In this document: piece by piece, positions 31,696-40,424 of the stretch
Layout: every line of letters starts with the position of its first letter
Numbering within the stretch: position 1 is the first letter of the stretch
Assembly (NCBI RefSeq): GCF_032191835.1
Contig: NC_083223.1
Coordinates: 76,260,001 to 76,324,000, forward strand
From: Heteronotia binoei
Taxonomy: Eukaryota
DNA length: 64,000 bases
Direction: 5' to 3'
Notes under the pieces: generated by a model
Database searches by the model: none
Told to the model about the DNA's origin: nothing
The model's input: the letters and a program-made list of their open reading frames with translations, nothing else
Program-made: the position numbers and the translations under genes

Positions 31696-32126
31696 ACCAT
31701 ATTGTCCCACTTCTTAGCAGTTCTCCTCTGCCTTACCCATCCAAGGTGTTTCATCACAGTGCTTTACCACTGTGGCAATATTGCCTCTGAATTCAGTGAC
31801 ATTTTAATTTTTAAAAGACAAAAAAAATATCCATAACTATATAGCAGCTCAGCTTTCCTCCTTCCTAGCATATGTTATTAAAGACTCCTACGATTCTTTC
31901 TGTGACTTTCAAACTGTCAGGCTGCATTTTATTTTTGACATGATATTGGTATGTTGTAAATATTTCATTCTCTCCCTCTGTGGGAGGTTGTATCTTTTGA
32001 TTGATCTAAGGCCTCATCAGGGTTAGGAAAACTAATTTTCCTCTGGGGAAAAATAAAACTTATGAGATGAGTTTTTATTATGGAAAATATCTATAATATG
32101 TTTTTCCCCCTCTTTGTCTTTGACAG

Positions 32127-32372
32127 AAATAAAAGATAGAAAAGATGTGACATGGTACTTGAAAATCTCACAGTTGGCACTGGCTTTAGCTATTATCCAC
32201 GCAAAACCACCAGATAAAAGTAGTAAAGAATATACAGAGCACCTGGCCAAGGTTGTATCTGGACCGGATTCCAAGTGGAAGTCAAAAGCTGAGGCATTGG
32301 AAGCTGAAGTTCTTCATTTAAGGCAGCAGCTGTATTTGAGCAAACTTTCCTCAGGATTTTGTTTGGAAAATT
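32127..32372 (+). CDS. MEI4: MEI4 coding exon (N-terminal helical region)
   Basis: DVTWYLKISQLALALAIIHAKPPDKSSKEYTEHLA..SKWKSKAEALEAEVLHLRQQL matches the vertebrate MEI4 N-terminus as recalled (human MDVQKWYLRTSKLALALAIIRSKPADKSSREYTEHLA). Acceptor ctttgtctttgacAG at 32125-32126, donor GTAAGT at 32373, phase 1 at both ends. Confidence 0.92.
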
Positions 32373-32970
32373 GTAAGTTTCTGAAGCCTAGTTTGAATGA
32401 ATTCCAGGTATCATGCATTGTTTACATCTTTTATTTAAAATATATCAATAAATAGACTGAATTCAGTCCTTCTGCAAACAGAGGAAGCACAGAGAAGTGT
32501 GTTTTACCACCTGCCCCTTCCTTATATGGATTTTTGCATCTCCATTAAAGTCACTGCTGAGGGTCAGACTGTCAGAACAGCATGCCATGCAGCACAGAAG
32601 GATTCCACAGCAGTCAATCACCCACCAATGGTTCCACAGGGTCCATTGATCTTTAGCAATGAAAAACTTGAAAGGGAAAAGTAAAGCAGTAAAAATTGAT
32701 TTTTGAAAATGCCCCATCTAAAGAAGCACAGGATCTAGTCCTAAGTGCCAGCTACCTTGCAATCCCCTTTCCTCCGTTTGCCCTTCCCTCGGTAGCCCAG
32801 GCTAGCTTCTTTCATCAGATCTTAGAAGCTAAGCAGGGTTGGCCATGGTTAGTACTTAGATCGGAGACCACCAAGGAAGTCCAGGATCGCTACAGAGAGG
32901 CAGGCAACGGTAAACCAGCTATGAATGACTCATGCCTTGAAAACCCTCTCTTTCTCCCTCAGAGGTTGTC

Positions 32971-33068
32971 GGACATCTCTGTGGGTTATTCCTACTATTC
33001 CTTCAGGGAGGCAGGAACACTTTTTTCAACTTCCTGTTGGCGCCTTCGGAATAACCCCGCCCTCAGTT
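32971..33068 (+). repeat. DIRS left inverted terminal repeat
   Basis: 98/98 identical to the reverse complement of 38108-38205 (compared base by base). Confidence 0.95.
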
Positions 33069-33245
33069 TTGTTCCTGCCTCTACAGGGAGCAGCAGCACA
33101 AGGCTAGAGTCAGCCTTTTTTCTCTGTTTCTTCTTCTCAATTTCCATTCCATATCCTTTCCTTTCCATATCTACTTATCCCTCCTTTTCCTTCTGCCTTT
33201 GCTGATCAAAGACTACCGAGGAAACTTGTTCTGGGTCGTTTTAGA

Positions 33246-34877
33246 ATGGCCTGTAGTAGGGACGGTTTCCTATCGGACGAGGAGGGAGAGTCGCGCGCCG
33301 CGCTTCTAGCAGCGCCGACTCACGTCGAAGGAGCCGACCTGCCTTTGCGGCTTGTTCGCGCCCTTCCTGACGCGGCCGCAGACGAGCCAGCTGCCAGCGC
33401 CAAGAAACGGCGCGTAATGAAGGCCCAGGCTACGTCCCTCGGGGCGGCAGCAAGCAGCGGCGGCCATTTTGGAAGTGCGGAGCGTAGCTCTCAGACCTTC
33501 CAACCCCCAGGAGCAGGCACTCCGGAGACTCGGAACTACCTGCAACCGCGCATCGAAGGCTTCCAGGACGGGGGTAATGTACAAATGGGCAACCCTCTGA
33601 ACCCAGAGGCTATGCTTTTTATTAGAAGAGCTATGCAGGAGGAAATGGGCTCCTTTTGCGCCCGGCTGGGGCTTCTCCCTCAAGGATCAACCTTTCCTGC
33701 AGACCCTCCCCGCTCTTTCTCCTGGCCCACTAAGGCAGCGCGAAAGGCCCCAGTGCAGTCTTCCCAATCCTTAGAGCTCGAGACTATGGCATCTCACTCT
33801 GACCAGGAAGACAGGGAAGAGGGGGAATGTTTCTCTGAGGAGGAACAGGAGGAGGTTAAAATTCCTGAACAGGCTAGTCGTTTCTTCCATCAGGAAGATT
33901 ACCAGTTTCTTCTAGCCAAAACGCTTTCAGCCTTAGAAATTGAGGAGGGCCCTATTGATGAGGAAGTCAAGGTAGCTAAATCTAAGAAGTTTAAGTCAAG
34001 AACCAGTGGTAATTCTGAGTTCTTGCCCAGGGGGGAAGCTTCTGAACAAGTCTTCCCTTTTCCAGAATACTTTGAAAAGCAGGTTAGAGCAGAATGGGAA
34101 AAGCCAGCTTCCCTTAAGCAGTTTCCTCACTTAGTAAAGAAGTTATATGCACTGCCTGCCTATACCAATGAGTTGTTACAAGCTCCAACTGTGGACGGCC
34201 CAGTAGCAGCTCTACAGTCTTCGGGACTGGTTTCAGAGGACGGCCAGGGTTCTCTTAGAGATCCCCTGGACAAAAAAGCTGAGGCAACCTTGAAGAGATT
34301 GTACGAATCTGTGGCCATGATAGTTAAGGCGTCCTCCGCGTCCTCCCTGGTCTCCAGGGCGTCCATTGTTTGGGTACGTAAGTTACTCCAGATGTTACCA
34401 GAGGACAACAGACGCATGTTAGAGGGCGCCTCACGCATCCTTAAGGCAGCGTCATTCACAGCTGACGCAACCTTAGATATACTGACCTTTGCCTCTAAAA
34501 CAATGGCTTCCGCTACTGTGGCTAGACGCCTCCTGTGGCTTAGGGCTTGGCAAGCTGACTTCCTCTCTAAGTCCACAGTGGCAGCTTATCCCTTTCAAGG
34601 GGATCGTCTCTTCGGGGACGCTTTGGACAAGATCCTAGTAGAGACTAGGGATAAAAAGAAGGCCATGCCCAAATCCATTCGGAGGAATGAAAAGAGGGGC
34701 CCCCAGTCCTTTCGGACCCAACATTCCTTGGCCAGATATCGTTCTGAATCAAAGAAGTTTAATTGGGAAACACCAAAGAATTCCTTCAAAAGAGGCTCAT
34801 TCGGCTCCAAATTCAATCGTAATAACTTCTCCAAAATGGACAAGCCTGACAGAGAGGGCAAGTCCAAGCAGGCATGA
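33246..34877 (+). CDS. DIRS ORF1, Gag-like protein (543 aa)
   Basis: First ORF of the element. FPFP..EWEKP, P.VD..VAAL and LRDPLDKKAE..LKRLY motifs are typical of vertebrate DIRS ORF1. Basic C-terminus. Confidence 0.9.
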   Translation: MACSRDGFLSDEEGESRAALLAAPTHVEGADLPLRLVRALPDAAADEPAASAKKRRVMKAQATSLGAAASSGGHFGSAERSSQTFQPPGAGTPETRNYLQPRIEGFQDGGNVQMGNPLNPEAMLFIRRAMQEEMGSFCARLGLLPQGSTFPADPPRSFSWPTKAARKAPVQSSQSLELETMASHSDQEDREEGECFSEEEQEEVKIPEQASRFFHQEDYQFLLAKTLSALEIEEGPIDEEVKVAKSKKFKSRTSGNSEFLPRGEASEQVFPFPEYFEKQVRAEWEKPASLKQFPHLVKKLYALPAYTNELLQAPTVDGPVAALQSSGLVSEDGQGSLRDPLDKKAEATLKRLYESVAMIVKASSASSLVSRASIVWVRKLLQMLPEDNRRMLEGASRILKAASFTADATLDILTFASKTMASATVARRLLWLRAWQADFLSKSTVAAYPFQGDRLFGDALDKILVETRDKKKAMPKSIRRNEKRGPQSFRTQHSLARYRSESKKFNWETPKNSFKRGSFGSKFNRNNFSKMDKPDREGKSKQA

Positions 34878-36774
34878 CTACGGTCACGTACCGGTGGGAG
34901 CTCGACTACTCCACTTTGCAGAAGCCTGGGAGGCCTCTCAGGCAGACCAATGGTCTTTAGAAATTGTAAAAGAGGGGTATTCAATAGAGTTTCACCGCAT
35001 TCCACCAGACAGATTTGTCAGATCACCTTCCCCCAAGCAGAAGCACAAACGTCTCATCACCTCAAAAGCAATTCAGCATCTTATCGACATTCGAGCAGTC
35101 GAACTAGTCCCAGGGTTGGAGAAGGGGAAAGGCGTATACTCCATCCTTTTCACCATACCCAAGAAGAATGGCGACTGGAGGGCCATCTTGGATCTCAAGT
35201 TTCTAAATCGCTATGTCAAAGTACGTCACTTCAGAATGGAAACCTTGAGATTCATTATGGACTCTCTATTGTCAGGGGAGTACCTCACTTCCATAGACCT
35301 GACCGAAGCTTATCTCCACATCCCTATCCACCCTTCTCATCGTCGTTTTCTAAGGTTCGTGGTACTGAATCAGCACTTCCAATACAGGGCCTTACCCTTT
35401 GGCCTGTCAACAGCGCCCAGAGTTTTTTCCAAAATGTTAATTCACCCAATAGCCCAGCTGAGGAAGCAGGGTATTCACATTCACCCCTATCTGGACGACC
35501 TCTTGGTCAGATCCAACAGCAAAGAGAAATCCCTTCGGGGGACAACTCTGGCCATTCAGTGTCTTCAGTCTCACGGATTCCTGGTGAACAAAGAAAAGAG
35601 TTCACTTCAGCCGAGTCAGAGGTTGGAACACCTAGGCGCAATGATCGACTCCACTTGCAATTCGCTATTTCTACCTCTGTCCAAGGCCAGGGCCATCAAG
35701 GATTTGGCTTCCAGGGTCATCCAGAGCAAATCATCACCTCTGATGTTGCTTGCCAAACTAATGGGACTTTTGATATCGACCATAGACATGATTCAATGGG
35801 CCAGATTCCATTCCAGGCCTCTTCAACGGTTCCTACGACCATTTCAACTTCAGATAATGGAGAGAAAGGCCATAAATCTGATAATTCCGTTGTCAGTCAA
35901 GAGGAGTTTGCGATGGTGGACGGACTTGTCTCATCTTCGCCAGGGCAAGTTGTTCCATCCTCCCTCATACCTGGAGGTATTCACAGATGCCAGCCTGGGG
36001 GGCTGGGGAGCTTCTCTTCAGGACAAGCCAGTCCAAGGCAGGTGGTCTCAGTCCGAGAGTCTGCTTCCCATCAATCTGCTGGAAATCAGAGCCATACGTC
36101 TAGCCCTGGTTGCATTCAGGACCCAATTGTTCCAGAAGCATGTGCTTGTCAGAACGGACAATATCGCAGCCAAGGCGTATCTGAACAACCAGGGGGGCTC
36201 CAGGTCTTCACAGTTGCACCGGGAAGCATCAAGAATTCTGACATGGGCAGAAAAACATCTGGCCTCTCTAAGGGCGGAACACATCAGAGGCCAGGACAAC
36301 ATACAGGCAGATTGGTTGAGCAGACAGGAAATCTGCGAGGGCGAGTGGGCCCTCAGCTCAGACATATTCGACCTCATATGCCAGCGTTGGGGTCTACCAG
36401 AGGTGGATCTTTTCGCTTCAAACACAAACTCGCAACTACCAAGGTACTTCACAAGGTTCTCCCATCCAGAAGCCGAACAGACAGATGCCTTGACAGCCAT
36501 ATGGCCTCCAGGTCTCTTGTATGCGTTTCCTCCGGTCCCTCTGGTTTCTCGAGTACTGCGGAGGGTGAGAGCTCTACAGGCGGAAATCATCATGGTAGCT
36601 CCCTATTGGCCACGGCGTCCGTGGTTCTCAATGTTGACAGAGCTATCAATAGACCTTCCAATGTCACTTCCAGTTCCTCCCGACATGCTTCATCAGGGTC
36701 CGGTGTGGCACCCCGACCCGGGGTGGTTTCATCTGACCGCGTGGAGATTGAGCGGGAGACATTCAGAAATCTAG
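34687..36774 (+). CDS. DIRS ORF2: reverse transcriptase, RNase H and Dam-like methyltransferase domain (695 aa)
   Basis: PVGARL, LPFGLSTAPRVF, YLDD (35488-35499), RNase H TDAS (about 35983), INLLEIRA, RTDN, ADWLSR, then DLFAS and YAFPP (36520-36534). Confidence 0.95.
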   Translation: MKRGAPSPFGPNIPWPDIVLNQRSLIGKHQRIPSKEAHSAPNSIVITSPKWTSLTERASPSRHDYGHVPVGARLLHFAEAWEASQADQWSLEIVKEGYSIEFHRIPPDRFVRSPSPKQKHKRLITSKAIQHLIDIRAVELVPGLEKGKGVYSILFTIPKKNGDWRAILDLKFLNRYVKVRHFRMETLRFIMDSLLSGEYLTSIDLTEAYLHIPIHPSHRRFLRFVVLNQHFQYRALPFGLSTAPRVFSKMLIHPIAQLRKQGIHIHPYLDDLLVRSNSKEKSLRGTTLAIQCLQSHGFLVNKEKSSLQPSQRLEHLGAMIDSTCNSLFLPLSKARAIKDLASRVIQSKSSPLMLLAKLMGLLISTIDMIQWARFHSRPLQRFLRPFQLQIMERKAINLIIPLSVKRSLRWWTDLSHLRQGKLFHPPSYLEVFTDASLGGWGASLQDKPVQGRWSQSESLLPINLLEIRAIRLALVAFRTQLFQKHVLVRTDNIAAKAYLNNQGGSRSSQLHREASRILTWAEKHLASLRAEHIRGQDNIQADWLSRQEICEGEWALSSDIFDLICQRWGLPEVDLFASNTNSQLPRYFTRFSHPEAEQTDALTAIWPPGLLYAFPPVPLVSRVLRRVRALQAEIIMVAPYWPRRPWFSMLTELSIDLPMSLPVPPDMLHQGPVWHPDPGWFHLTAWRLSGRHSEI

Positions 36775-37817
36775 GTTACTCTCCGGAGGTGACGGACACT
36801 ATGCTAGCATCAAGAAGGCCCTCCACAGTTCGCATATACAACACCACCTGGAAGGCCTTTGTCCGATGGTGTCGTAGGAAAAAGGTTCCTTCGCTTTCCC
36901 CTTCCATTGCGGAGATACTAGCGTTTTTACAGGAGGGCCTGGAGTCCAGGTTAAAACCAGCTACGCTGAGAAGGCAGATAGCTGCCCTGTCCACTGTCTT
37001 ACCGGTCGTTGGAGGGTATAGGCTATCTCAACATCCACACATCCAGTTATTTTTGCAGGGGGCAAAATCGAAATCTCCTCCGACAGTCCATCGCTTTCCG
37101 TCTTGGCGGCTCCATACCGTTTTATCAGCGCTTACCAAGAAGCCATTTGAGCCCCTTCGAGAGGTGGACTTAAAATGGGTGCGAATGAAAACTCTCTTCT
37201 TAGTAGCCATCACGTCTGCACGTCGAGTCTCGGAACTGGGGGCCTTATCAGTGAAGGCGGGTCTTTGCGTGTTCCACAAAGAAAAGGTGGTTCTGCGCAC
37301 GGATCCCTCCTTCATTCCTAAGGCTGCTTCTAGGTTCCACCGCTCACAAGAAATCTACTTACCCACCTTTTGTCCAGAACCCAAACACCCAAAGGAGGTA
37401 GTCTGGCATACGTTAGATGTGCGCAGGGCCTTGAAGATTTTCATTCTAAGATCTGAGTCAATTAGAAAAACTGAATCCATGTTCATCAACATCTCTCCTC
37501 CAAGAGTGGGAGACAAGATGTCTAATTCATCCATCAGTGCAGTGCTGAAGGCCTGTATCAGCGAAGCATATAGGGCATCAGGGTTACAGGTACCTGGAGG
37601 AATCACTGCACATTCTCTTAGGAGTGCCTCCACAAACGCGGCACTGCTGAACAGGGCTTCAGTCGAAGAGGTGTGTAGAGCTGCTACTTGGTCCTCTCCG
37701 TCTACGTTCATAAGACATTATAAGATCCATTCCATGGCATCAGCAGATGCAGCATTTGGGAGAAAGGTATTACTGCATGTTCTGGGGGAGGTCAGCGATG
37801 AAGACCCACCCGATTAA
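34950..37817 (+). CDS. DIRS ORF3: tyrosine recombinase with a long N-terminal segment overlapping ORF2
   Basis: Catalytic motifs ARRVSEL (37221), AHSLRS (His 37611, Arg 37620), ATW and RHY (Tyr 37719). The frame is open back to 34878. Confidence 0.93.
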   Translation: MVFRNCKRGVFNRVSPHSTRQICQITFPQAEAQTSHHLKSNSASYRHSSSRTSPRVGEGERRILHPFHHTQEEWRLEGHLGSQVSKSLCQSTSLQNGNLEIHYGLSIVRGVPHFHRPDRSLSPHPYPPFSSSFSKVRGTESALPIQGLTLWPVNSAQSFFQNVNSPNSPAEEAGYSHSPLSGRPLGQIQQQREIPSGDNSGHSVSSVSRIPGEQRKEFTSAESEVGTPRRNDRLHLQFAISTSVQGQGHQGFGFQGHPEQIITSDVACQTNGTFDIDHRHDSMGQIPFQASSTVPTTISTSDNGEKGHKSDNSVVSQEEFAMVDGLVSSSPGQVVPSSLIPGGIHRCQPGGLGSFSSGQASPRQVVSVRESASHQSAGNQSHTSSPGCIQDPIVPEACACQNGQYRSQGVSEQPGGLQVFTVAPGSIKNSDMGRKTSGLSKGGTHQRPGQHTGRLVEQTGNLRGRVGPQLRHIRPHMPALGSTRGGSFRFKHKLATTKVLHKVLPSRSRTDRCLDSHMASRSLVCVSSGPSGFSSTAEGESSTGGNHHGSSLLATASVVLNVDRAINRPSNVTSSSSRHASSGSGVAPRPGVVSSDRVEIERETFRNLGYSPEVTDTMLASRRPSTVRIYNTTWKAFVRWCRRKKVPSLSPSIAEILAFLQEGLESRLKPATLRRQIAALSTVLPVVGGYRLSQHPHIQLFLQGAKSKSPPTVHRFPSWRLHTVLSALTKKPFEPLREVDLKWVRMKTLFLVAITSARRVSELGALSVKAGLCVFHKEKVVLRTDPSFIPKAASRFHRSQEIYLPTFCPEPKHPKEVVWHTLDVRRALKIFILRSESIRKTESMFINISPPRVGDKMSNSSISAVLKACISEAYRASGLQVPGGITAHSLRSASTNAALLNRASVEEVCRAATWSSPSTFIRHYKIHSMASADAAFGRKVLLHVLGEVSDEDPPD

Positions 37818-37837
37818 AGGGGACTGCTCTGGTAGGT

Positions 37838-37928
37838 CCCACAGAGATGTCCGACAACCTCTGAGGGAGAACGGCCCATTGGACTTACCGTGAGGGGTCC
37901 TTCTCCTCAGAGGTTCGGAGGACATCTC
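37838..37928 (+). repeat. DIRS internal complementary region (ICR)
   Basis: 37838-37871 is the exact reverse complement of the left end (32952-32985). 37872-37928 is the exact reverse complement of the right end (38197-38253). Confidence 0.95.
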
Positions 37929-38107
37929 GCCACTCCCAGATTCATTTTCATCGCTTAGGTTTCTTTCTATAGCCTATCTCCCTTGTACTGTGTTACTTTC
38001 AGTATTATCGGAGTTCAAGTTTACAGTTTACATGTTAAAACGAGTTGTTAGTTGTGTTTATAGTCCTTCTAGTTAGAGGGAAGACGACACTGCTTTCGGA
38101 GTCCCAC

Positions 38108-38205
38108 AACTGAGGGCGGGGTTATTCCGAAGGCGCCAACAGGAAGTTGAAAAAAGTGTTCCTGCCTCCCTGAAGGAATAGTAGGAATAACCCACAGAGA
38201 TGTCC
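38108..38205 (-). repeat. DIRS right inverted terminal repeat, followed by a right extension to 38256
   Basis: Reverse complement of 32971-33068. Confidence 0.95.
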
Positions 38206-40424
38206 TCCGAACCTCTGAGGAGAAGGACCCCTCACGGTAAGTCCAATGGGCCGTTCAAAATAAGTCATCTGTGACTTGACAGAAATAAATAAATCCTCTG
38301 TTTGCTGTTCAGGGTTCTGTTTAGGAAGTGTTTGAATTGATGAGGGTATATACTTCACCAGCACTGAAGGGTGTGGAATGAACTTTTTGAATCTTTCTGC
38401 CTCCTTTCTGGACTGTGACAGCTAGCTCTGTGTCTTTTCCTCAGAATTTCACACTTTTCATGTGGTTGAGGTAGTCCAAATGTTTCTTTTTTTTAGGCAC
38501 CAAACTTGTACCATTACCCAATGCATCATAGTGAAGAAAACATGAATATAAAGATCATGTTCTAACATAATGCATTGTTAAAAATCTTTGTTTATAAACA
38601 GCATCATTTACTGAGATGATTCCGAAACAGCCAAGTAACTGAAGCAGAAAGCAAGTGAAATCAATAACATCTCCTGTGAAGTGCAATCTGGTGTTCAGTA
38701 AATACTGTCACCTTCCTTTTTCTTTTCCATTGTATTCTATTGCTTGTGAATTCCTTTTTTCTTGAAATGGCTGTTCAGTTATTAGTTCAGTTGCATCAAA
38801 GTAGAGTCTTTTAAATATTGAGAGATTTTTCTAAATTTATGTGATGAGACACCTCCTCTCAAATTATGCAATCATAACACCTAGGTATTCTTTTTTCAGA
38901 TTTTATTGTTGTGCATTTATATAAACTGTTTTATGTAAGTATTTTTAACTGGCAACACTGTTATTTGACAAATCACATTGTAATAGCTCTACATAAGGAT
39001 TAGCATAACAAGATACCATCCAGAATAATGACTCTTGCAAGTTCCTGTCTGGAGCAATGTCTCATTTGTGGCTGCCACTTTTCCTGTTTCCATGGCAGCT
39101 CACAGAAAACAGATCTTCTGATGTGTTCATTCCTATACTGCCTGGTACAAGATCCTTCTCTAGGAAGGGTTCAGAGCTTACTTGCAAAGAGTTTAGAGTT
39201 CTTGAATCATGTCCCAAGCAATGTGTTTTTTCAATTTAGAGAAGCCATATTGGTTCTTTCCCTCAAACATCCCTAGCAGTTGGCTTACTTACAACTCAGC
39301 TTCTTCCTGTTTATTTTTTTTCCTAAGTAACTGAAGACTGATATGTAGATGGTTAAGGAAAATCTTCCATTTTGGTTGACTGGAAAGCATGTCTCATTTT
39401 TTTTAAACAAGTGGAAACTTATCTGATCAAAAGGAATAGGACTAAGTATAGTAGTTTGATAGACTGAGGTGATAGCCTATTCTCACCTAAACAGGAAAGA
39501 GAGGTTTCTTCTTGCACAACTAAACCCACTTATACAATGAACCACTAGGACTATGAAAAAATTCCTCAGGATATCAACAAAGATGCGATAACACAAAGGA
39601 ATTTGTTTATCATATGTCAGTGCAAATGTACCAGTAAATAGAGTTCTGACAGAGGAGAGAATTTTGAGCACTTAGCAGTACAATGAGGTATTTGATAAAA
39701 CTTGACCAAATTTATAACTGAAGCAATATAAAACAATGTTTTTGGCTAAAATTCACATTGTGACAATTTCCTAGTGAGCTTCATAGCTGAGTTCTGCCAG
39801 TCCTAGTGCAGCTGTCTAATCCAGGAAAGGGTACGCTTTCTGTTTATGGAAGCTGCTTAAATGTTTTCAAGACTTTTGGGAGATACAGGTTACAAAATGG
39901 CAGCTTGGAGGGTGGATTCACTCACAACATGGCAGCTTGTACAAAAATTACAGAAGGCCCATAGCAGGGAACAAAACCTGCTGTTTTCCCAAAGCAAACC
40001 ATCACTCTGCCCCCCCCCCCATTGTAATGTCGTGTAGTGGGGAAATACAGAATTATTTCTTTTCTTTTTTTTTACATGAATAAAGCAGATAGCAGTTTTG
40101 ATGCAAGTGGGAAGAGTCCAATAGTATGTTCCTTTCCCATCCAGAGGAAGGGTGTTTTCAAGCATGGAGGAAAAGGTGCTGGTGCTGTCAGTTTTCCCAT
40201 CCAGAGCAAAGGTTCATGCATGTACCACCTCCTCATTCATGCAAAAGAGATAGGAGAAAAGCTGCTGCAGTATCTTTAAAGAGAAGGATGAAAAAGTGAT
40301 TAGAATAGCATTGGACAAGAGAGCTACTTTTAATTACTTGGATAGTGACTTGTCACTCTTTAGTGACTTCCATCAACTCCTGCCCTAATCAGTATACCAG
40401 ACTGAATGTATTCTTGTGTTACAG

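Follow-up and report, generated by a model that had tools for sequence, protein, structure and literature searches.

DIRS1-like retrotransposons, described from DIRS-1 of Dictyostelium and from families in Xenopus and Anolis, encode a Gag/LAP2alpha protein, a Pol protein combining reverse transcriptase (RT), RNase H and methyltransferase (MT) domains, and a tyrosine recombinase (YR). They carry inverted terminal repeats (ITRs) along with an internal complementary region (ICR), and their Pol and YR genes share a long overlap (PMC3266345, PMC9210276; papers are cited here by PubMed Central number and for the portions available). DIRS elements have no protease (PMC3783388). The window analysed here, a stretch of 64,000 nucleotides from the 2.63-Gb genome of Heteronotia binoei (contig NC_083223.1, positions 76,260,001 to 76,324,000, forward strand), contains a young DIRS1-like element at 32952-38256 that has the same parts and the same overlap. 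Whereas these elements are described as having three separate open reading frames (ORFs), ORF2 and ORF3 of this one appear as recoded fusions to Gag. The mechanisms are known and so is the element class. The available portions of papers that describe the three DIRS ORFs or their overlap contain nothing on the translation of ORF2 or ORF3 (PMC3266345, PMC9210276, PMC7192593, PMC3783388, PMC6681497, PMC8547959, PMC3537659, PMC9004415). A literature search found no paper on DIRS recoding; the founding papers and Repbase notes lay outside its coverage, so a prior mention is possible.

The gag stop of this element resembles the type II readthrough sites of alphaviruses, in which UGA is followed by CUA in Sindbis virus (SINV) and O'nyong-nyong virus (ONNV) and by CGG in Venezuelan equine encephalitis virus (VEEV) (PMC13517186, the available portion of which does not mention DIRS). 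Stop codon and context at positions +4 to +6 are the same, and an upstream protein is likewise fused to an enzyme; in contrast to the viruses, no conserved extended stem-loop was found and the readthrough region is overprinted for about 626 codons on another gene. A second signal, a +1 motif, has its nearest kin in influenza A PA-X (UCC_UUU_CGU) and in the predicted UUU_CGN sites of amalgaviruses, fijiviruses and chronic bee paralysis virus. Shifting in PA-X occurs at rates of about 1% and is knocked out by UUC_AGA (PMC3498833). Unlike PA-X, the motif described here lies in a retrotransposon, is predicted to yield Gag-Pol, has CGU, CGA, CGG or CGC as its A-site codon and is followed 55 codons on by a readthrough site. 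Long terminal repeat (LTR) elements also make their enzymes as rare C-terminal extensions of Gag, through +1 shifts in Ty1 and Ty3, UAG readthrough in Moloney murine leukaemia virus (MoMLV) and a gag-UGA-pol arrangement in Candida Tca2. They do so, however, with one recoding step and a protease-cut polyprotein, whereas DIRS would use two steps that give two separate fusions.

The gag and recombinase ORFs lie in a single frame of 1524 codons (33246-37817), whose only stops are codon 544, a TGA at 34875-34877, and the terminal one. Translation of this interval bears out the earlier note on this DNA, which had described ORF1 and ORF3 as one frame with a single internal stop in the context GCA TGA CTA CGG, 24 sense codons from that stop to the ATG at 34950, and 955 codons from this ATG onward; measured from stop to stop, ORF3 has 979. 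Taken by itself, the window copy could have 24 open codons by chance (P ~0.33, from synonymous re-draws of the Pol codons). Over the whole Pol overlap, 39 recombinase-frame stops are expected and none is seen, and not one of 2000 synonymous draws was stop-free; the open frame over this overlap is not a product of chance.

Divergent families of the same genome were collected by two degenerate patterns for the start motif of Pol together with Pol similarity, neither the stop nor the gag tail being among the criteria. From 120 loci and the window, removal of 15 without an RT match, two without the motif and four refetches of one place left 100 distinct loci. These form 22 clusters at 80% identity, with a median identity of 53% between clusters (ungapped identities for L074-L052 and L083-L087 are indel artefacts and were disregarded). 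A gag stop stands at the matching place in 97 of them, the exceptions being L060 (gag end missing), L086 (shifted) and L098 (TGT); the distance from the end of the gag frame to the motif is 10, 19 or 31 nt, offsets that were fixed after inspection of the data, with L043 set by hand. The stop is TGA in 95 copies and TAA in two, while the codon before it varies (GCA, GCG, GCC, CAA, CAG, ACC, TCA or ACA), as does the Pol linker after it. The earlier note had proposed a comparison with other copies and families. Co-framing across a single stop of the leaky type holds in the 22 clusters as well as in 45 metagenomic ones, and its query about the +4 C/CUA context is answered by C at +4 in 94/97 copies and CT(A/G) after the stop in 89/97. 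Intact relatives show neither ORF3 in another frame nor extra stops between the gag stop and the ORF3 ATG, findings that the note had named as speaking against readthrough.

The metagenomic relatives are the best 80 of 479 confirmed loci and fall into 64 clusters; 'gag' there denotes an upstream open frame of at least 450 nt, with no homology call. This frame is co-framed with the recombinase in 45 clusters and with Pol in three, and is too short or broken in 16, which puts gag-recombinase co-framing at 45/48 classifiable clusters. A recombinase match was obtained for 32 of the 45, in the co-framed frame in 27 and in another frame in five (broken copies); among the rest, 12 end too early and one has no match. 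Their gag stops comprise 33 TGA, 12 TAG and no TAA, as against TAA at 13/24 true recombinase ends and 229/598 third-frame stops. C follows TGA in 22/33 (third frame 39/136) and G follows TAG in 9/12 (third frame 56/233). Two scans of viral contigs yielded no relatives. The three clusters with a swapped layout (L159 with L158, L177 and L203) have an upstream long ORF co-framed with Pol across one stop (TAA-C, TAG-G and TAG-G), and their recombinase frame opens 37-106 nt before that stop. Here readthrough may lead to Pol and a -1 shift into the recombinase frame; of the three, only L203 has a heptamer that looks slippery.

Two features of type II readthrough are present at the junction: a lone UGA, conserved and in frame, that separates two ORFs and stands in a CUA, CUG or CGG context, and coding selection directly 3' of the stop. 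The recombinase frame is open for 937-979 codons in intact copies of five clusters, and the 16 copies selected as intact contain no recombinase-frame stop over the overlap, where synonymous Pol re-draws predict 34-39. Avoidance of stops was followed up to the gag stop itself by means of Pol codons in which a synonymous T would create a recombinase-frame stop. In the own-genome families, none of the 28 such sites in codons 1-10 has T (7.2 expected, from 22 cluster members), and 1/16 has it in codons 11-20; the metagenomic clusters use it at 0/28 sites in codons 1-7 and 0/56 in codons 8-20. Pooled over 67 own and metagenomic clusters, the first six codons give 1/43, against a control rate of 0.28. 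The frames, the two motifs with their conservation and this avoidance are read directly from the DNA. Co-framing, a stop of the leaky type and the avoidance of further stops right from the first codons give good comparative support to the earlier note's proposal of a Gag-recombinase fusion, and make readthrough its very probable origin.

The recombinase might instead have its own start, at AUG 34950 (by reinitiation after gag or on a shorter RNA) or, where a family has it, at a CUG directly behind the stop. An ATG does occur within 32 codons in many families, amphibian ORF3 proteins of about 950 aa start near codon 17, and CTG directly follows the stop in 50/97 copies. Yet 39/97 have CTA instead, and the first ORF3 ATG falls at codon 21, 25, 29, 83, 112, 281, 307 or 616 depending on the copy. 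The A that turns a Pol TGG into such an ATG precedes 10/40 early and 18/60 later TGG codons, so that early ATGs occur at the chance rate. In the young family L076, L051 and L053 (99.9-100% alike) there is no ORF3 ATG for 306 codons, over which 19.6 stops are expected and none is seen. Early stop avoidance, the variable, chance-level ATG and these 306 ATG-free, stop-free codons indicate that the recombinase frame is under selection upstream of any AUG. Since an own start would also leave the absence of TAA among the 45 metagenomic stops unexplained, we regard it as very unlikely. The ATG that overlaps the stop (ATGA) was rejected as a start: it belongs to a short ORF in the third frame and is missing wherever the stop follows GCC or GCG.

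Removal of the stop before translation, by A-to-I editing to UGG, or its decoding as selenocysteine is more improbable still, to the point of being hardly credible. Editing would also disfavour TAA, which would require two edits; edited RNA, however, would be copied into new elements, and TGG is absent among the 97 stops, while L098, the only substituted copy outside them, has TGT. A G before the A makes a poor editing context. No selenocysteine insertion sequence (SECIS) or other RNA family matched within the element, and 12/45 relatives use TAG.

The second recoding signal, absent from the earlier note, is TCC TTT CGG in the gag frame, 55 codons upstream of the stop. At the corresponding position, which lies 43-58 codons ahead of the stop, 67/69 Phe-Arg sites are written TTT CG, compared with 25/84 other Phe-Arg pairs in the same gag tails, where TTC AGA/G is commonest. 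The motif stands in frame in 67 of the 97 copies; of the other 30, 6 are shifted further on and still carry it, 16 have it in CpG-decayed versions and 8 differ in some other way. All 16 copies with intact Pol and ORF3 possess it. Where the gag tail is open (53 loci), the Pol frame has 73 stops in the stretch before the motif and 4 after it (third-frame control 212 vs 184), a contrast that is partly compositional because the hydrophilic tail offers few Pol-frame stops anyway. No upstream Pol ATG exists in L075, L076, L111, L121, L127, L128, L130 and L145. The locus has the features of a PA-X-type site, namely UUU_CGN in the zero frame behind a UCC-like codon, fixed at the codon level, and, in several intact copies, a position close to the 5' end of a +1 frame that is open but has no start of its own. 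No structure was found 3' of the site in the window (z -0.19). From this codon-level conservation, and from the opening of the Pol frame at the motif, a +1 shift into Pol at TTT CGG appears probable.

Further TTT CG codons occur in frame lower down the gag tail of the L082 cluster (codon -37) and of the L042/L074 and L111 clusters (codon -30 or -33); they possibly act as redundant shift sites, and they make up much of the 25 control matches. For amphibians, fish and other squamates, whose junctions are known from proteins alone, a Pol-frame P-F-(G/V/A/E) precedes the Pol motif by 46-68 residues in P0016, P0121, P0122, P0125, P0129, P0130, P0139, P0140 and P0146 and is lacking in others, for example P0043, P0127 and P0136. 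This pattern is no more than suggestive.

Pol could conceivably be reached in another way, with readthrough still supplying Gag-recombinase: by an antizyme-like +1 slip at the UGA or by initiation at AUG 34687, TTT CGG then being a protein motif or a back-up. Antizyme genes shift +1 at a stop, as at UCC_UGA or CCC_UGA and, in yeast, at GCG_UGA_C (PMC5009743, in whose first 300,000 characters DIRS is not mentioned), and GCG or GCA TGA C is common among the own-genome copies. The conserved part of Pol begins a few codons after the stop, and the window has a Pol-frame ATG at 34687. Against this, the codon before the stop is variable within the genome, the sister L128, which is 94% identical, lacks ATG 34687, and neither the codon-level fixation of TTT CG nor the drop in Pol-frame stops needs a shift at the stop site; we consider this alternative unlikely for the present element. 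Among the metagenomic relatives, TTT CG occurs in the overlap in 14/45 clusters, compared with 2/45 control stretches. In 21 of the 31 clusters that lack it, the stop is immediately preceded by NTT or NCC (background 11.9%), which is true of 0/14 clusters that have it. These 21 resemble antizyme and seem to shift at the stop, a route that seems not to be this element's; one stop would there serve termination, +1 shift and readthrough. Neither +1 signal is found in the co-framed clusters L155, L165, L169, L185, L210, L214, L220, L224, L228 and L229.

Splicing could likewise join gag to the recombinase and to Pol, with TGAC as branch point and TCCTTTC as pyrimidine tract. An AG is frequent 10-21 nt behind the stop, and nine NCBI gene models (P0002, P0004, P0013, P0015, P0024, P0077, P0079, P0083 and P0118) join LAP2alpha to the recombinase frame, probably through predicted introns around the stop; their joining points vary, however. 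Within the final 330 nt of gag, only 5/22 clusters have a donor-like site, at unrelated places, and acceptor-like sites after the stop occur at the background rate and in mixed phase (10/22 and 24/45; controls 5-14/22 and 23-26/45). Such an intron would remove the first codons, in which stop avoidance already begins; a splice that skips Pol would not keep 600 codons open, and a pyrimidine tract would tolerate TTC. Four RNA runs of related organisms, mostly less than 95% alike and covered for about 6% of each raw run, gave five joints, none of them GT..AG, which is a weak point at a depth too low to serve as evidence. We consider splicing unlikely too, slightly more so than the preceding alternative.

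Readthrough and frameshifting together would give, likely enough, three related proteins from one start on one unspliced RNA: Gag, Gag-Pol and Gag-recombinase. Most ribosomes would stop at 34875 and release Gag of 543 aa. A small share would slip +1 on UUU while the CGN codon waits, re-pair on UUC and enter Pol, making a protein of about 1175 aa; a small share of the remaining ribosomes would insert an amino acid at UGA and continue through about 626 linker codons into the recombinase, making 1523 aa. We infer such recoding by ribosomes, and its rates, from the patterns described above; the fixed ratio and the packaging into particles that the earlier note proposed for the fusion are hypothetical. 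On balance we also favour, for DIRS1-like elements from this vertebrate genome to distant eukaryotes, a three-way recoding switch in which both enzymes arise only as Gag fusions from unspliced RNA. As parts of the same reading, the slip site may well have moved in evolution between the upstream UUU_CGN and an antizyme-type codon at the gag stop, and in some lineages a single stop may on balance decide among termination, frameshift and readthrough.

The earlier note had suggested a stimulatory hairpin (GCCTGGGA/TCTCAGGC); it is present in the predicted fold, yet 34878-34960 folds no better than shuffled sequence (z -0.83). The larger stem-loop listed in Table 1 keeps 37/39 pairs in the 94%-identical sister and 14-21/39 in 20 other families, and the structure conservation index behind the gag stop is at most 0.15. 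A conserved 3' stimulatory stem-loop, frequent but not obligatory in type II readthrough, was rejected on fold statistics and family comparison.

Several observations weigh against the proposed scheme. It rests on sequence comparison, and the RNA reads are too few and too distant to exclude splicing directly. Behind the stop there is no conserved 3' structure, the mean z of -0.6 over 12 families being that found elsewhere in the element. The +4 C is weak when counted by cluster (20/22 against an Asp codon background of 0.71, P 0.025), and protein constraint could contribute to the context because TGA CT(A/G) also encodes Asp-Tyr/Trp in Pol. Several amphibian Pol-frame proteins read H-E or Y-E at the junction, implying UGA-A/G, and 11/33 metagenomic TGA stops are not followed by C. 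Three of the 22 own-genome clusters, all single old copies, have no trace of TTT CG; 10/45 metagenomic clusters have neither +1 signal and 22/45 have a Pol-frame ATG upstream. A rapid RT tree built from 56 rows groups the classes by kinship (12 changes, compared with 26.6 after shuffling), with the slip-at-stop class in about six places and weak deep support; because clusters are kin, the P values given here are inflated and overstate independence. Finally, the gag-UGA-pol junction of Tca2 alone gave no readthrough in yeast reporters (PMC2194720).

Table 1. Features of the DIRS1-like element, in window coordinates.
Feature	Position	Strand	Remarks
Left terminus and left inverted terminal repeat	32952..33071	+	32971-33071 99% complementary to 38105-38205; 32952-32985 complementary to ICR
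ORF1, Gag-like, 543 aa; LAP2alpha domain, basic low-complexity tail, TGA end	33246..34877	+	PF11560, E 1.7e-21
ORF2, Pol (RT, RNase H, Dam-like MT)	34642..36774	+	+1 frame relative to gag; predicted entry at 34714, Gag-Pol ~1175 aa
TCC TTT CGG in gag frame (Phe = codon 489), predicted PA-X-type +1 site into Pol	34707..34715	+	
Gag stop TGA CTA, with a type II readthrough context; ORF3 predicted to be reached here by readthrough	34875..34880	+	
ORF3, gag frame, 979 codons	34878..37817	+	~626-codon linker overprinted on Pol, then C-terminal tyrosine recombinase; predicted Gag-X-YR 1523 aa
Predicted extended stem-loop, this family only, not conserved	34892..34997	+	z -3.2, window chosen after seeing the fold
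First ATG of ORF3	34950..34952	+	arises incidentally where A precedes a Pol Trp codon; not conserved
Internal complementary region (ICR)	37838..37928	+	37838-37871 complementary to 32952-32985; 37869-37928 complementary to 38197-38256
Right inverted terminal repeat and right extension	38105..38256	+	complementary to left ITR and ICR

The element is assigned to the DIRS1-like class because of its inverted terminal repeats, an ICR complementary to both ends, and matches to LAP2alpha, RT, RNase H, recombinase and, weakly, Dam. ORF2 contains an RVT_1 match (E 6.6e-21), followed by RT_RNaseH (E 1.5e-4, below cut-off) and a Dam-like methyltransferase in the expected position after RNase H (PF05869, E 0.006, below cut-off). 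The recombinase end of ORF3 (36756-37814) has Phage_integrase (E 7e-4) and SAM-like matches below cut-off; its relatives carry the name Tyr recombinase, the closest named ones being squamate, and no Pfam family matched the linker. Among the family copies, all 40 of the scored matches listed are 100% identical over 701 nt (529 candidates), and the family is very young. The junction is kept in 30/30 near-identical copies fetched, which says little because of that youth. Contigs in the runs X1 and X2 of related organisms skip about 1430 nt of the recombinase region (36658-38090 of the window) without splice ends, probably reflecting an internally deleted, non-autonomous derivative. Upstream of the element, an open frame at 32066-32455 with a Mei4 domain (E 1e-26) is likely an exon of the host gene MEI4; about 500 nt 3' of it, on the same strand, comes the DIRS copy, which is probably intronic. 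A degenerate stretch at 32788-32898, which lies about 50 nt ahead of the element's left end and resembles 5S rRNA (E 0.003, under the gathering score), is perhaps a 5S-derived short interspersed element (SINE) or a pseudogene at the insertion site.

The scheme offers an answer to how ORF2 and ORF3 of DIRS elements are expressed and why they overlap for about 600 codons, neither of which is addressed in the literature covered. If it is correct, the long Pol/recombinase overlap is explained: it would be the road that leads from Gag to the recombinase. Annotations that begin ORF3 at its first ATG are likely wrong, as are gene models with a splice across the stop. PA-X-type +1 shifting, known from viruses, would also operate in a large class of mobile elements of the nucleus, readthrough and frameshifting would be combined on one RNA, in some lineages at one codon, and DIRS elements would provide natural variants, in their hundreds, of two recoding signals that are poorly understood.

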